From Escherichia phage AnYang, in sequence record MK234886: a DNA stretch of 64,000 nt. The stretch is one strand, 5' to 3'. The notes beneath the pieces were generated by a model. That model saw only the letters and a list, made by a program, of their open reading frames with translations, had not been told where the DNA came from and did not search any database. Positions 28,885-60,203 of the stretch are shown here, one piece after another. The stretch's first letter is position 1. Each line of letters begins with the position of its first letter. The position numbers and the translations under genes are program-made.

Positions 28885-28914
28885 ATACCTCCTGAGTATA
28901 GGAGGTATTTATAT
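28885..28914 (-). promoter_or_regulatory. gene e translational-control hairpin with embedded late promoter
   Basis: ATACCTCCT/AGGAGGTAT inverted repeat holding the SD; minus-strand TATAAATA overlaps the 5' arm. Confidence 0.6.
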
Positions 28915-30879: not shown

Positions 30880-31104
30880 TTACTTTTTGTTGAAAAAGTA
30901 CATTTTACCTTTAGGAGATAAAGATACACGAAGTGCGTTACCAATACCAACTGAACATTTAACCAGGTCAGCAGATTTCAATTCACCAAATGCTTGACGA
31001 AGGTCACCGTCACGAGTGTTAACCATCAGGCATTTAGCGCCAGCTGCACGAACTTCGTTTAACATGTTGATTGCTTGATTAGAAAGTTTCATTTTATTCT
31101 CCAT
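30880..31104 (-). CDS. hypothetical protein
   Basis: ORF-track TTG start lies upstream of the promoter; ATG at 31104 or 31092 chosen. Confidence 0.45.
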   Translation of the reverse strand: MENKMKLSNQAINMLNEVRAAGAKCLMVNTRDGDLRQAFGELKSADLVKCSVGIGNALRVSLSPKGKMYFFNKK

Positions 31105-31129
31105 TTCACTCTGTTGTTTTGATAGGTCT

Positions 31130-31159
31130 ATAGTATCACACCTATAGACCTTGTACACT
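31130..31159 (-). promoter_or_regulatory. T4-type early promoter with AGGTCTATAG/CTATAGACCT inverted repeat
   Basis: GTGTAC -35 variant, TACTAT -10; cassette nearly identical to those at 36608 and 40958. Confidence 0.45.
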
Positions 31160-36572: not shown

Positions 36573-36607
36573 TTTACTCTCCTTCACTCTGTTGTTTTGA
36601 TAGGTCT

Positions 36608-36636
36608 ATAGTATCATGTTTAAAGGAGGTGTAAAC
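36608..36636 (-). promoter_or_regulatory. T4-type early promoter
   Basis: GTTTAC -35, TACTAT -10. Confidence 0.5.
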
Positions 36637-36663: not shown

Positions 36664-36690
36664 CCCCCAAAAAGGAGACCGAAGTCTCCT
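36664..36690 (-). terminator. rho-independent terminator (minus strand)
   Basis: AGGAGAC-TTCG-GTCTCCT hairpin followed by TTTTTGGGGG. Confidence 0.6.
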
Positions 36691-36694
36691 TTCA

Positions 36695-37303
36695 TTATTT
36701 ACGAGTCTTTTCGAACTGGGCTGCGTCACCTGCAAGGCGGCCGGCTTGGCGAAGTTTGTTATTGATTTCTTCGCGCATAGGCTGGGTATACTTAAGGCCT
36801 TCAACCGTCAGATAGAGACGATACAGGTCTGGGGTATCCAGGTTGTTAATGTGTTGACCATTACGAAGAGCGTTGAATTCACGAACAAGGTGTTTAGTTT
36901 CAGATTCGATTTCAGAAACTAAAGAAGCCAGTTGGTTATATTTTTTAACTATAGTGCTGGTGTCAAACTTGATTTTAGGTTTAGGAGCTTCTTTTACAGG
37001 TTCTGGTTTAGGCGTCGGTTTCGGTGTTGCAACTTTGGGCTGAGCCGCAGGTTTAGCAACAGGAGCTTTAGTAGGTTTAGTAGCGCCACCAGCTACGATA
37101 TCTTTAAAAGCTTTGGAAGCTTTGTAATATTCTTTCTGGTTACTGGTGTCGAGCCCATACATATCATAGACGTTTTTAAAGAATTCGGTGGTGGTTTTAG
37201 TCCCAGAAATTTTATCATAAGCTGCTTGCCACATATCTTTAGTCATGCGAACGCCGGCTTCACTCAGAATGCTTTCGTTCAAAAATTCATTGTAAGTTTT
37301 CAT
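36695..37303 (-). CDS. internal-protein-like protein with CTS and Pro/Ala/Lys-rich linker
   Basis: 202 aa; N-terminus MKTYNEFLNE; KPTKAPVAKPAAQPKVATPKPTPKPEPVKEAPKPK low-complexity segment. Confidence 0.6.
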   Translation of the reverse strand: MKTYNEFLNESILSEAGVRMTKDMWQAAYDKISGTKTTTEFFKNVYDMYGLDTSNQKEYYKASKAFKDIVAGGATKPTKAPVAKPAAQPKVATPKPTPKPEPVKEAPKPKIKFDTSTIVKKYNQLASLVSEIESETKHLVREFNALRNGQHINNLDTPDLYRLYLTVEGLKYTQPMREEINNKLRQAGRLAGDAAQFEKTRK

Positions 37304-37331
37304 TGGTATTTCCTAAGTTAATTAACTTATC

Positions 37332-37366
37332 TATTTATACAAAAAGCCCAACCTTTCGGAAGGGCT
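37332..37366 (-). promoter_or_regulatory. terminator plus late promoter (TATAAATA) module
   Basis: minus-strand hairpin AGCCC...GGGCT with U-run, then TATAAATA about 28 nt upstream of the CTS gene ATG. Confidence 0.5.
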
Positions 37367-37371
37367 GTAAA

Positions 37372-37926
37372 TCAGTTCTTATAGAATCGGAACGGGTTTA
37401 CGTGGAAGGCTAACATAGCCTTAGGGATTTTACGAGACAAAAGACTCTTAAGTTTCCAACCACAGTACACGCGAAGGTAAAAGGTAATACCTCCAACCTT
37501 AAGATAAGGAACCGAAGCAAAAACTCCCCATGCGTCATCATTCCACATCCATAGCCACCCGTGATGAGCTTTATCAGGGGAACCTGATTCCACATCAGGA
37601 TTACCGCGATAATGGAATTCTGAGCTACAATCACGTCCGAGTTTATGGTAAGCAAAGTTATAAGCTTTATTTCGCCATAGCCAAGCTACTCTCTGGAGAT
37701 AAACGCCAAAAGGTAGTTTTCTGATTTTAGCCCAACGTTTAATGTGACCTTTATCACCGTCAATTGGATTATCGTATGTCATCATCCAATCAAAGCCATA
37801 TGGTAATTTACCGGTCTTTTTATTGTGGAAAGGGACTACAAAAGGTGCAAGGATAACAGCCAGAACCATAGAGATAAAATCTAGAGGGACCAACAGAACC
37901 CAACTCAAATATTTTAAAAGTTTCAT
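37372..37926 (-). CDS. membrane-anchored Trp-rich protein expressed from a late promoter
   Basis: 184 aa, N-terminal TM helix, AGGAAAT SD. Confidence 0.55.
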   Translation of the reverse strand: MKLLKYLSWVLLVPLDFISMVLAVILAPFVVPFHNKKTGKLPYGFDWMMTYDNPIDGDKGHIKRWAKIRKLPFGVYLQRVAWLWRNKAYNFAYHKLGRDCSSEFHYRGNPDVESGSPDKAHHGWLWMWNDDAWGVFASVPYLKVGGITFYLRVYCGWKLKSLLSRKIPKAMLAFHVNPFRFYKN

Positions 37927-37952
37927 ATTATTTCCTAAGTTAGTTTACTACA

Positions 37953-37989
37953 TATTTATACAAAAAAGGCCCGACCTTTCGGAAGGGCC
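37953..37989 (-). promoter_or_regulatory. terminator plus late promoter (TATAAATA) module, second copy
   Basis: GGCCCTTCCGAAAGGTCGGGCC hairpin with U6, then TATAAATA; near-duplicate of the module at 37332-37366. Confidence 0.5.
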
Positions 37990-38225
37990 TTTAACCTAGG
38001 GTAACCTTGTCGGGGTTCCACCTGCTAGGCAAGTGTTCGGTGCGCCGTTTCAGCTGTGATATAAGGGACTTTAAGAGGAACTCATGTACGCCTTAAAGTC
38101 GGGTCTTATTCAGGGAACTTCAGTCCGACGACTTACCGGTAGCGACCCGGTTTCTTGTTTGTTGCGCCGGTGAATGCTGGTAATCAGTCTTCATACGACG
38201 GCTTGACTATATAATAGTCTTCATT
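37990..38225 (-). ncRNA. candidate small stable RNA(s) distal to tRNA-Arg
   Basis: 236 nt non-coding gap between tRNA-Arg and a terminator; internal hairpin GACTTTAAG/CTTAAAGTC; T4 has stable RNA species 1/2 at this position as I recall. Confidence 0.3.
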
Positions 38226-38300
38226 TGGTATCCCGCCCTGGGATCGAACCAGGACCGCAAACTTAGAAGGATCGTATGCTATCCATTACACCAGCGGGAC
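38226..38300 (-). tRNA. tRNA-Arg (anticodon UCU)
   Basis: hand-folded cloverleaf: acceptor GTCCCGC/GCGGGAT, T-arm CCTGG-TTCGATC-CCAGG, anticodon loop CTTCTAA, encoded CCA. Confidence 0.8.
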
Positions 38301-38305
38301 GTAAT

Positions 38306-38971
38306 TCAAAATTTTATTTTACGGCCTTTATTCCAACCTTCAGGAATAATATCCGTTTTGTTAATACGTTTAGAAACTTTTTCTTCTAAAGAATGAATCC
38401 ACATTTTTCCATATCCGGAATTATTTTCACCTTGTTGGTGTTTATTTCTGGCGTGAGATTCTTTCATTTTATTTTTGGTTTCATCTGAATGGGTCTTACC
38501 CAAGAAAGATTTAGTATTTGAAAATTTCTCTCTATACTTAGGATTATCCCAAAGTTGTTTAAACCTTTCTGAACCCATTTTACGATATTTTTCTTTAAGG
38601 TCTGGGTCGTTCTCAAATCTGGTTTTAAAAGCGGCAACTCCTTTTAAGGAAGCTTCTTTCTTTTTATCTAAATATTCTTCAGTGTTTAAATGGTCCCAAC
38701 CACCTTCACCGCCTAATTTCAAATTATAAACATCGGGGCGCTTTAAAAACTCTTCAGTCACAATATTCTTTTCTGACTCAAACATAGAGATTTTATCGTC
38801 AAAGAACTCTAATATTTCTTTAGAGAAATTTTCTATACCGTATTTGGCCTGGGCCCTTTTCAAGAGTTTACCGGAACCAAAATATGCATCATTCAAATTT
38901 TCGGTTGAATGGGCTCCTATATAGATTTTATTATTAATTTTGTTTGTTATTTTATAAGTGTAATGGAACAT
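38306..38971 (-). CDS. segB: GIY-YIG homing endonuclease (SegB-like)
   Basis: 221 aa; N-terminal YKITNKINNKIYIG GIY-YIG motif; sits between the two tRNA genes. Confidence 0.8.
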   Translation of the reverse strand: MFHYTYKITNKINNKIYIGAHSTENLNDAYFGSGKLLKRAQAKYGIENFSKEILEFFDDKISMFESEKNIVTEEFLKRPDVYNLKLGGEGGWDHLNTEEYLDKKKEASLKGVAAFKTRFENDPDLKEKYRKMGSERFKQLWDNPKYREKFSNTKSFLGKTHSDETKNKMKESHARNKHQQGENNSGYGKMWIHSLEEKVSKRINKTDIIPEGWNKGRKIKF

Positions 38972-40424: not shown

Positions 40425-40697
40425 TTATTTTAGATAAATTGCATACTTTTTATAACCAGCCGTTTCGTGACGCAGTCCTTTTTCATTAGCAAAACGTTCA
40501 ATATTGTTAATTTGATTCTGGTCAAGTTCTGAAGTATCAAAAACAAAAAAGTTTCGCTTATTGCCTAAAGTTACATGATTAGTCAAATCAATGTTATAGA
40601 GATGATTTATATTATCAATCATGGTCTTAACAGATTTGTTAATTTTTACTTCTTCATTAAGAACAGATTCAGCGATAAATTCTTGATAAGTTTTCAT
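40425..40697 (-). CDS. internal-protein-like protein with CTS
   Basis: 90 aa; N-terminus MKTYQEFIAE. Confidence 0.65.
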   Translation of the reverse strand: MKTYQEFIAESVLNEEVKINKSVKTMIDNINHLYNIDLTNHVTLGNKRNFFVFDTSELDQNQINNIERFANEKGLRHETAGYKKYAIYLK

Positions 40698-40698
40698 T

Positions 40699-40920
40699 TT
40701 ATTCTACGCCAGCGGCTTTCAAAAGTTTTTTAAGATTGGCGGTGCCTTGAGCAGAAAATGTGACCTTGCCGCCTTTTTCGCTGATGCTCCCAGTCAATTT
40801 AGCAAGTTTATCACTAGAGACTTTTTTAAAATCAGCCAATGTACCGTCAAAGGTTTTTGTAACAACCGGCAGTTGGTCATGTTTTTTAGCTTCTGTAATA
40901 AATTCTTGATAAGCTTTCAT
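40699..40920 (-). CDS. internal-protein-like protein with CTS (ipI position)
   Basis: 73 aa; N-terminus MKAYQEFITE; immediately upstream of 57B as ipI is in T4. Confidence 0.6.
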   Translation of the reverse strand: MKAYQEFITEAKKHDQLPVVTKTFDGTLADFKKVSSDKLAKLTGSISEKGGKVTFSAQGTANLKKLLKAAGVE

Positions 40921-44395: not shown

Positions 44396-44418
44396 TATAA
44401 ATATTAATATTATTTATA
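44396..44418. promoter_or_regulatory. divergent late promoters (TATAAATA on each strand)
   Basis: plus-strand TATAAATA at 44396-44403 for gene 53; minus-strand TATAAATA at 44411-44418 for gene 4. Confidence 0.6.
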
Positions 44419-53688: not shown

Positions 53689-53719
53689 GGGCCGCAAGGC
53701 CCTTTCGGGGGTATAAATA
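53689..53719 (+). promoter_or_regulatory. terminator hairpin followed by late promoter TATAAATA
   Basis: GGGCC-GCAA-GGCCC plus T-run, then TATAAATA at 53712-53719 upstream of gene 9. Confidence 0.6.
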
Positions 53720-60169: not shown

Positions 60170-60174
60170 TAAAA

Positions 60175-60203
60175 GGGCTTCGGCCCTTTTTTTGCTATAA
60201 ATA
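60175..60203 (+). promoter_or_regulatory. rho-independent terminator followed by late promoter TATAAATA
   Basis: GGGC-TTCG-GCCC plus T7, then TATAAATA at 60196-60203 upstream of gene 13. Confidence 0.65.

Follow-up and report, generated by a model that had tools for sequence, protein, structure and literature searches.

Two near-identical modules on the minus strand of Escherichia phage AnYang (sequence record MK234886) bracket a gene for a small membrane-anchored protein, and comparison with related phages suggests that they are the seams of a mobile late-gene cassette. The window studied here, i.e. the whole stretch of 64,000 nucleotides, belongs to a JS98-like Dhakavirus, a T4-type coliphage, and the 1.9 kb around the modules match phage KIT01 best (95.7%). 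All relevant genes of the locus are on the minus strand. Module A (37989-37927) precedes a 184-aa gene of the DUF7338 family (37372-37926), the payload of the cassette, and module B (37365-37304) precedes a 202-aa gene (36695-37303) whose product begins with a putative capsid-targeting sequence (CTS). We interpret the modules as copies of one composite element consisting of terminator, late promoter and leader with ribosome binding site, which would act in gene regulation and, as judged from relatives, in genome plasticity. We put the probability of this reading at about 0.7. It draws on the repeat, on its anatomy, on the orthology of one copy to a known termination site and on indel breakpoints that coincide with the module at two loci. 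The original prediction of a duplicated terminator plus late promoter overlooked that the two copies are, by sequence comparison, the boundaries of mobile gene cassettes. The regulatory reading of the modules is plausible and partly supported, and their role as seams of late cassettes is the more informative reading.

Module A consists of the hairpin GGCCCTTCCGAAAGGTCGGGCC (37968-37989), T6 (37962-37967), a G, the octamer TATAAATA (37953-37960), which corresponds to the -10 box of a gp55-type late promoter, and a leader with a Shine-Dalgarno (SD) sequence (AACTTAGGAAAT; 37927-37952). Module B has the same order with hairpin GCCCTTCCGAAAGGTTGGGC (37346-37365), T5 (37341-37345), a G, TATAAATA (37332-37339) and an SD-containing leader (ACTTAGGAAATA; 37304-37331). 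Hairpin, T-run and TATAAATA were thus found in both copies exactly where they had been predicted. A repeat search returned a 37-nt direct repeat with copies spaced by 623 nt and, together with alignment, a second repeat over the 5′ untranslated region and SD sequence (37307-37327 versus 37929-37949; 21 nt, 90% identical). As the repeat reaches through the 5′ untranslated region and the SD sequence, each module measures about 60-65 nt, so that the near-identity originally postulated holds while the length of approximately 40 nt was too short. The 20-mer GCCCTTCCGAAAGGTYGGGC occurs exactly twice in the 64 kb even if up to three mismatches are allowed, and it was absent from 100 shuffles.

Both hairpins fold into a 5-bp GC stem with a 2x2 U-rich internal loop and a GAAA tetraloop closed by a C-G pair. 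Hairpin A reads GGCCC-UU-CC-GAAA-GG-UC-GGGCC and is followed by U6 (37962-37989 in total), hairpin B reads GCCC-UU-CC-GAAA-GG-UU-GGGC and is followed by U5 (37341-37365); the latter begins 6 nt past the DUF7338 stop codon and forms the right end of the cassette. Folding energies in 56-nt contexts were -16.9 and -13.4 kcal/mol for A and B, respectively, with z about -2.1. The combination typical of intrinsic terminators, a GC-rich stem-loop directly adjoined by a U-run, is present in both modules, and hairpin A was partly detected by a consensus terminator scan. Among 15 sequences, the outer two stem pairs covary (GC/CG/AU/UA) across lineages without a single broken pair: 13 cells had double changes, none was unpaired, and 0 of 500 shuffles reached this value. 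Because six of these sequences had been retrieved through a match to the inner 18-mer, the inner pairs appear overly invariant, and the outer pairs alone are informative. The compensatory changes support the view that the stem is under selection. The UU/UU internal loop is filled with GA or AA in T4 and ECO111 5-P, giving Watson-Crick or wobble pairs and perfect stems.

Hairpin A has a counterpart in T4. There, tRNA-Arg is followed by rnaD, rnaC, the sequence CACTTGCCTTGGCAGGTGGAACCCCGACAAGG..., the hairpin AGCCCCGACCGAAAGGTTGGGGC-T5, a non-coding stretch of approximately 180 nt and the e.8 early promoter. In alignment A2 with T4, the window has lost the body of rnaC and retains the hairpin, the conserved trailer and a homologue of rnaD (T4 species 2 stable RNA). 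The rnaD homologue (38039-38156) is identical to annotated T4 rnaD at 93 of 118 positions (79%) and is fused directly to the 3′ trailer of rnaC. This trailer (CACTTGCCTAGCAGGTGGAACCCCGACAAGG...; 37990-38038) is the left flank of the insertion site and is invariant across T4, Dhakavirus, Mosigvirus and Gaprivervirus. The module A hairpin and this left flank align with the T4 sequence after rnaC. Transcription of the T4 tRNA cluster is reported to end after the species I RNA gene and to yield a tRNA precursor of approximately 1.75 kb (PMC2330249). As hairpin A aligns with the site at which the T4 transcript ends, it is the orthologue of the tRNA-operon terminator; the RNA 3′ end would then lie at the U-run, a position for which the literature support concerns the T4 orthologue (PMC2330249). 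The two sites differ in what follows: T4 has no TATAAATA after the hairpin (TTTTTGGTATCTAAG) and no gene before e.8, whereas the window lacks the rnaC body and carries two late cassettes. A search with Rfam at gathering thresholds over 34-44 kb found two tRNAs and nothing else. There is no Rfam family for rnaC or rnaD, and so the homology of rnaD rests on the alignment to T4.

Close relatives display the locus in several states. T4 represents the empty site with a hairpin free of TATAAATA. In IME08, which has no DUF7338 gene, the left flank of module A leads into one hybrid hairpin with box, after which come the module B leader and the CTS gene. In JS10, an early promoter comes directly after module A, the DUF7338 gene and the second hairpin, and there is no late box, CTS gene or e.8. 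Gene order is swapped in QL01 and vB_EcoM_005, where the module precedes another CTS allele, a small unrelated hairpin, the DUF7338 gene, a hairpin and the early promoter. In one genome from IMG/VR (L058), only the last approximately 25 nt of the DUF7338 gene and the hairpin remain. Gaprivervirus of the VR20 type shares the left flank and a hairpin carrying TATAAATA in front of the DUF7338 gene, and in DK-13 the box is degenerate and the 3′ hairpin is another one, with a sister genome representing the empty site. In the Mosigviruses JK45 and G2469, the post-tRNA terminator leads into a late box with CTS-like genes (MKSYAEFL..., MYTFNEFL...). Hence repeated copies flank open reading frames that are present or absent among relatives, and a single, chimeric element marks the empty site (IME08, JS10, T4, and RB69 compared with LF82-2).

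Since a scan of IMG/VR for the left flank gave 15 loci, frequencies were taken from a census of GenBank phage records with 181-nt junction queries that had to be covered to at least 80%. In about 60 Dhakavirus-like records, the flank was joined to the DUF7338 gene in 33 and to the CTS gene in 10, whereas the DUF7338 gene was joined to the CTS gene, as in the window, in 10 and to the early promoter in 23. All four junction combinations therefore exist in this group.

The same unit occupies a second, unrelated site. After rI, RB69 and about 150 other Mosigvirus records possess a single hairpin, AGCCCCTTCCGAAAGGTTGGGGC-TTTTTGGCATCTATCAG..., followed by an early promoter. In 23 records including LF82-2 and ECO111 5-P, TATAAATA, leader, DUF7338 gene and hairpin are inserted exactly at this hairpin. 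The hairpin is duplicated, again with a period of 623 nt, and the flank continues unchanged afterwards. The Mosigvirus DUF7338 coding sequence is 72% identical to that of the window (398/555), and the 18-nt hairpin core is identical.

Two further observations concern the hairpin itself. A third copy is located outside the window in Dhakavirus, between the convergent uvsW.1 and uvsY-side genes (JS98, locus L039, 3690-3745; also L065, L072, L075, L036 and L023); it looks like a bidirectional terminator and potential further landing pad. The exact 18-mer CCCTTCCGAAAGGTTGGG, with two U.U mismatches, is found as a T-run-followed terminator in many unrelated IMG/VR contigs (L017, L019, L020, L024, L028, L041 and others). 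This recurrence points to a favoured terminator design and not to a lineage marker, and the hairpin core alone is therefore not diagnostic of a cassette. A far-reaching extension would regard the GCCC-UUCC-GAAA-GGUU-GGGC terminator as a landing pad shared across T-even genera (tRNA operon, rI and uvsW.1), with late units of approximately 623 bp moving between pads and genera as discrete elements, possibly via mini-circles or a hairpin-recognising protein. We consider this doubtful. If true, it would amount to an integrase-less, integron-like system for late accessory genes, including those for injected internal proteins and DUF7338.

The closest precedents are the promoter-early stem-loop (PeSL) cassettes of RB49 and phi1, a concept that has been widened to T4/PST and, in a form with middle promoters (PmSL), to nt-1 (Arbiol et al. 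2010, PMC2839356; Comeau et al. 2014, PMC4122927). Like these, the modules are intergenic composites of a small stem-loop terminator, a consensus promoter and an SD sequence. PeSL and PmSL elements are likewise repeated in hyperplastic regions, flank single non-essential open reading frames at indel boundaries of close relatives, leave one chimeric element at the empty site and make the cassette transcriptionally autonomous. They differ in the promoter, which is σ70-like early or Mot-dependent middle there and a gp55-type late box here, and in the stem, which is polyG/polyC there and GCCC/GGGC with a GAAA loop here. Moreover, the present case comprises one cassette at two loci in two genera and is known from sequence, whereas mini-circles belong to the published systems. 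No match to an early promoter -35/-10 was found at the modules, TATAAATA being the sole promoter element; with the early-promoter feature lacking, the module is a late-promoter analogue and not a PeSL proper. Late promoters are not mentioned in PMC2839356 or PMC4122927, and our literature search found no equivalent term such as 'PlSL'.

Other systems resemble the locus in part. According to the account of Repoila et al. 1994 in PMC2839356, the internal protein (IP) loci of T-even phages harbour CTS-bearing IP genes in small hypervariable loci bounded by conserved promoter/stem-loop sequences thought to mediate exchange. As summarised there, those elements are based on T4 early promoters and weak AT-rich stem-loops. 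The locus described here differs from that picture in its position after the tRNA/rnaC terminator, where T4 is empty, in its late promoters and GC-rich hairpin, and in its additional non-IP payload, DUF7338. With lambdoid morons and integron cassettes it shares a single accessory gene that travels with its own expression and termination signals, and one recombination element per cassette with insertion at a resident copy. In contrast to these, there is no integrase or attI, and, differently from morons, recombination appears to act on the regulatory sequences themselves (compare the discussion in PMC2839356).

How might such cassettes move? Less than 50 bp of homology is reported to be enough for T4-type recombination (PMC2839356), and the PeSL and PmSL cassettes provide a precedent (PMC2839356, PMC4122927). 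The 25-60 bp of identity between modules could serve the recombination system of the phage itself as a portable patch of homology. A 623-bp unit comprising late promoter, leader, gene and hairpin would then be deletable, insertable or transplantable at any resident copy of the hairpin, which would be duplicated if the unit is present and single if it is absent. The duplication in the window would be the trace left when a unit was inserted at the terminator of the tRNA operon, by circle integration at the resident hairpin, unequal crossover or copy-choice.

On the transcriptional level, copy A would end the prereplicative tRNA-Met/segB/tRNA-Arg/rnaD transcript at the same place as in T4 and then launch a late, gp55-dependent mRNA encoding the DUF7338 membrane protein; initiation at T4-type late promoters depends on gp55/gp33/gp45 and sets in once replication has begun. 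Copy B is expected to attenuate the mRNA from copy A and to launch a second late transcript for the capsid-targeted internal protein. The late unit would be closed by a strong terminator with a perfect stem, AAAGGAGAC-UUCG-GUCUCCUUU (36671-36692; -18.5 kcal/mol, z = -3.8), located ahead of the e.8 early promoter.

Late promoters of the T4 type are defined by a -10 element of the TATAAATA type and do not require a -35 element (PMC2988020). Eight of the nine TATAAATA boxes in the window, including that of the homologue of lysozyme gene e, are positioned 21-28 nt upstream of the ATG of a real open reading frame; the distance is 26 nt in module A and 28 nt in module B. TATAAATA was found wherever a cassette gene comes after the hairpin and is missing at the empty sites of T4 (GGTATCTAAG), RB69 (GGCATCTATCAG) and JS10 (GTTTCTAAAAG). 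In front of the DUF7338 gene it is conserved in Dhakavirus, Mosigvirus and VR20-type Gaprivervirus. Because hairpin A is the orthologue of a T4 terminator and the box spacing is like that of eight of the nine boxes in the window, the interpretation as terminator plus late promoter is well supported from sequence, and this part of the original prediction stands. Expression of the two genes exclusively late in infection is something we infer. The additional claim that this would be unusual for the region was overstated, as T4-type phages regularly have late promoters inside this early region (in the window, for example, that of e at 28906).

Several points weigh against this overall interpretation of the modules. 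Some cassette copies are bounded by other hairpins, namely at the 3′ end of DK-13 and at the 5′ end of QL01, so that the GCCC/GGGC hairpin sequence is not obligatory. The TATAAATA octamer is not enriched in the AT-rich DNA of the window (9 observed against 8.0 +/- 3.3 expected). Hairpin B, with seven pairs around a 2x2 U.U loop and U5, is weak and absent from the listing of the consensus terminator scan; the weakness makes read-through of transcription likely. The 18-nt core is common in unrelated contigs, so that its identity at the two sites could be due in part to convergent use of a favoured hairpin instead of shared descent. Each event may have been an insertion or a deletion, with a mini-circle, unequal crossover or copy-choice as the intermediate. 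Finally, we infer the efficiency of termination, the use of the late promoters and the late-only status from sequence features.

Some of these points would be expected if the duplication were purely regulatory, each late gene requiring a terminator and promoter of its own, the polymorphism being due to ordinary illegitimate deletions in intergenic DNA and the modules having no role in mobility. The arrangement of hairpin, T-run and TATAAATA is indeed generic and recurs at 53712 and 60196 in the late region of the window, unrelated phages often use the hairpin core as a terminator, and cassette ends with other hairpins fit this alternative as well. Yet in IME08, in JS10 and between RB69 and LF82-2, the breakpoints map with single-nucleotide precision to the shared hairpin/box, and what remains is one clean element, either hybrid or single. 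Nor does it account for a 623-nt unit at two unrelated loci with the hairpin duplicated both times, for the existence of all four junction combinations, or for a hairpin core conserved to 100% next to a gene conserved to 72%. Thus, we regard an exclusively regulatory origin as unlikely.

The strong conservation of the hairpin relative to its payload and the presence of one unit at two different hairpin sites would also fit a site-specific mobile element, in which the GCCC...GGGC hairpin is an attC-like structure or homing target of a dedicated recombinase or Seg/Mob nuclease and the unit moves by mini-circle or double-strand-break repair, not by general homologous recombination. Such an idea was raised for PeSL stem-loops by Arbiol et al., who cited T4 deletions ending at GGGC/GCCC motifs (PMC2839356), and segB is located about 340 nt upstream in the window. 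On the other side, 25-60 bp of homology suffices for T4 recombination (PMC2839356), no recombinase is encoded in or beside the cassette, and some joints lie at the T-run/box or at other hairpins. KIT01, JS98 and JS10 carry cassettes without segB, for which reason SegB-driven homing was rejected as their cause. There is only a slim chance that a dedicated enzyme is at work. Least probable is that the hairpins act mainly as RNA 3′-end stabilisers or processing signals, with chance TATAAATA boxes and genes read through from upstream early or middle promoters, because, despite the chance-level octamer count, the weak hairpin B and the frequent leakiness of T4 terminators, eight of nine boxes precede real start codons at 21-28 nt, the box is kept before DUF7338 in three genera and before the Mosigvirus CTS genes but gone from every empty site, and a CTS protein, like the T4 internal proteins, must be made during prohead assembly, i.e. 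late.

If the modules are cassette joints, they extend the PeSL/PmSL idea of regulatory cassettes that double as recombination linkers to the third class of T4 promoters. One 623-bp late cassette, filled and empty, at two terminators in two genera would be an unusually clean natural case. It would explain how T-even phages swap late accessory functions, among them injected anti-defence internal proteins and a widespread membrane protein, while leaving neighbouring transcription units undisturbed. The post-tRNA-operon terminator would be a third internal-protein locus, empty in T4. In practical terms, the modules may mark predictable, safe insertion points for engineered therapeutic T4-like phages. 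They reveal no new mechanism of gene regulation.

Read-through RNA offers a possible additional layer of control, namely late-only translation of the kind known for T4 e and soc. For the RNA reading through module A, a 9-bp helix CCUAGGUUA/UAACUUAGG is predicted to occlude the ribosome binding site, and the predicted accessibility of the SD sequence rises from 0.24 in the read-through RNA to 0.41 in the late RNA for A and from 0.44 to 0.81 for B. This effect has modest support in Dhakavirus, is missing or reversed in the Mosigvirus copies, and is not accompanied by covariation. In the minus-strand segment 28880-28913, the inverted repeat CCTCCTATACTCAGGAGG, which includes the SD sequence, comes after the late promoter of the lysozyme e homologue. 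T4 e has the same arrangement, by which the ribosome site is hidden in the early read-through RNA.

The protein encoded between the modules matches the Pfam family DUF7338 (PF24027) over residues 1-183 of 184 (E = 4.7e-64; 215.8 bits against a cut-off of 27) and belongs to phrog_2143. It has one strong hydrophobic segment at the N-terminus (KD19 = 2.44 at residues 9-27; next best 1.13) and 10 Trp residues (5.4%), in agreement with the initial description as a gene for a Trp-rich protein with an N-terminal transmembrane helix; the gene is real. In a confident AlphaFold2 (AF2) model (pLDDT 93.4), residues 2-33 form a helix at the N-terminus, and the remainder contains a helical region and a sheet of five strands, i.e. 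a membrane helix ahead of an alpha/beta domain that is conserved and rich in Trp. The motifs T-x-D-N-x3-G-D-x-G-H, W-L-W-R-N-K-x-Y-N and R-x-Y-x-G-W-K-x-K are shared within the family. Foldseek against BFVD retrieved family members only and no protein of known function, an NCBIfam search gave no match, our literature search found no paper mentioning DUF7338, and a preprint on essentiality in Bas63 contains nothing specific on it. By tblastn, the family is present in 591 phage records from T4-like genera, Felixounavirus, Otagovirus and jumbo phages.

Close relatives can do without the gene, which hence codes for an accessory protein. As a best guess of low confidence, DUF7338 is a late inner-membrane protein acting on the envelope, for instance in lysis timing or superinfection exclusion. 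Some homologues, in Felixounavirus, are labelled 'holin'. These are unreferenced database names without traceable evidence, and we consider them unsupported. A holin would be a small membrane protein whose C-terminus is hydrophilic and charged, with a genetic link to the endolysin and no other holin candidate in the phage. In the DUF7338 protein, one transmembrane segment is followed by a folded conserved domain of approximately 150 aa, the gene is next to an endolysin gene only in Aeromonas PX29, and the Felix O1 genome paper names other holin candidates. With homologues in about 590 phage genomes, this dispensable, putatively late membrane protein is worth characterising.

DUF7338 genes occur inside or beside tRNA arrays in unrelated lineages (window, 37372-37926; L011 and L013, 2001-2558 each; L086, 2995-3555; L012, 2001-2567; L085, 3001-3525). 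The gene is found after tRNA-Arg and rnaD in Dhakavirus, after tRNA-Phe in Karamvirus Pet-CM3-4, between tRNA-Arg and tRNA-Gln in Felix O1, between tRNA-Val and tRNA-Trp in Otagovirus phiPsa381 and approximately 1 kb from tRNA-Ile in RB43; in Aeromonas PX29 it abuts the endolysin gene instead. The adjacency could reflect a functional link or merely shared hyperplastic territory.

The 202-aa protein encoded downstream of module B, correctly recognised before as a CTS protein, starts with MKTYNEFLNE|SILSE|, which resembles T4 IPIII (MKTYQEFIAE) and IPI (MKTFKEF), and contains two gp21-type L-x-E sites. It belongs to phrog_2280 of 'unknown function'. On the basis of the CTS and the predicted late promoter, it is a candidate injected internal protein. 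QL01 and vB_EcoM_005 carry an allelic version of 154/157 aa, which in QL01 has a weak N-terminal match to the internal-virion-protein family phrog_7857 (E = 7e-4). Other IP-like genes at 40425-40920 in the window possess early-type promoters, unlike the CTS gene.

Upstream, the locus map begins with tRNA-Met (39083-39013), followed by the GIY-YIG gene segB (38971-38306) and tRNA-Arg(TCT) (38226-38300; ARAGORN; Rfam RF00005, 48.8 bits), the final tRNA of the prereplicative unit. A conserved non-coding stretch of about 225 nt (38225-37990) extends from tRNA-Arg to module A; within it, approximately 70 nt between tRNA-Arg and rnaD (38157-38225) have no counterpart in T4, JS98 or IME08. The distance from the DUF7338 gene to tRNA-Arg is about 446 nt in KIT01 (L001, 3929-4373), 299 nt in the window and 236 nt in JS98. 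The block of segB and tRNA-Arg (38226-38971) is 80% identical to T4 as a whole, and its tRNA-Arg is identical at 75 of 75 positions. In the closest relatives of the window, KIT01, JS98, IME08 and JS10, there is no segB, the tRNA-Arg differs, and a tRNA-Asn is present in addition. The block looks like a product of SegB homing with co-conversion of the flank.

Downstream, the right flank of the locus (36577-36635) is formed by a T4-type early promoter, TTTACA-16-TACTAT (36635-36608), and the conserved leader of e.8, which follows. The leader module GATACTATAGACCTATCAAAACAACAGAGTGAA..GGAGA occurs twice on the minus strand, at 36577-36615 in front of e.8 and at 31099-31137 in front of a gene at approximately 31.1 kb; the copies differ by three mismatches, with 0 expected by chance. 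This PeSL-like early element also forms the joint in JS10, which has neither e.8 nor the CTS gene. Elsewhere in the window, composites of a GC-rich hairpin, T-run and TATAAATA lie on the plus strand in the late (baseplate) region at 53690-53719 and 60170-60203, and a divergent, back-to-back pair of TATAAATA boxes 8 nt apart (44396-44418) serves genes on both strands.

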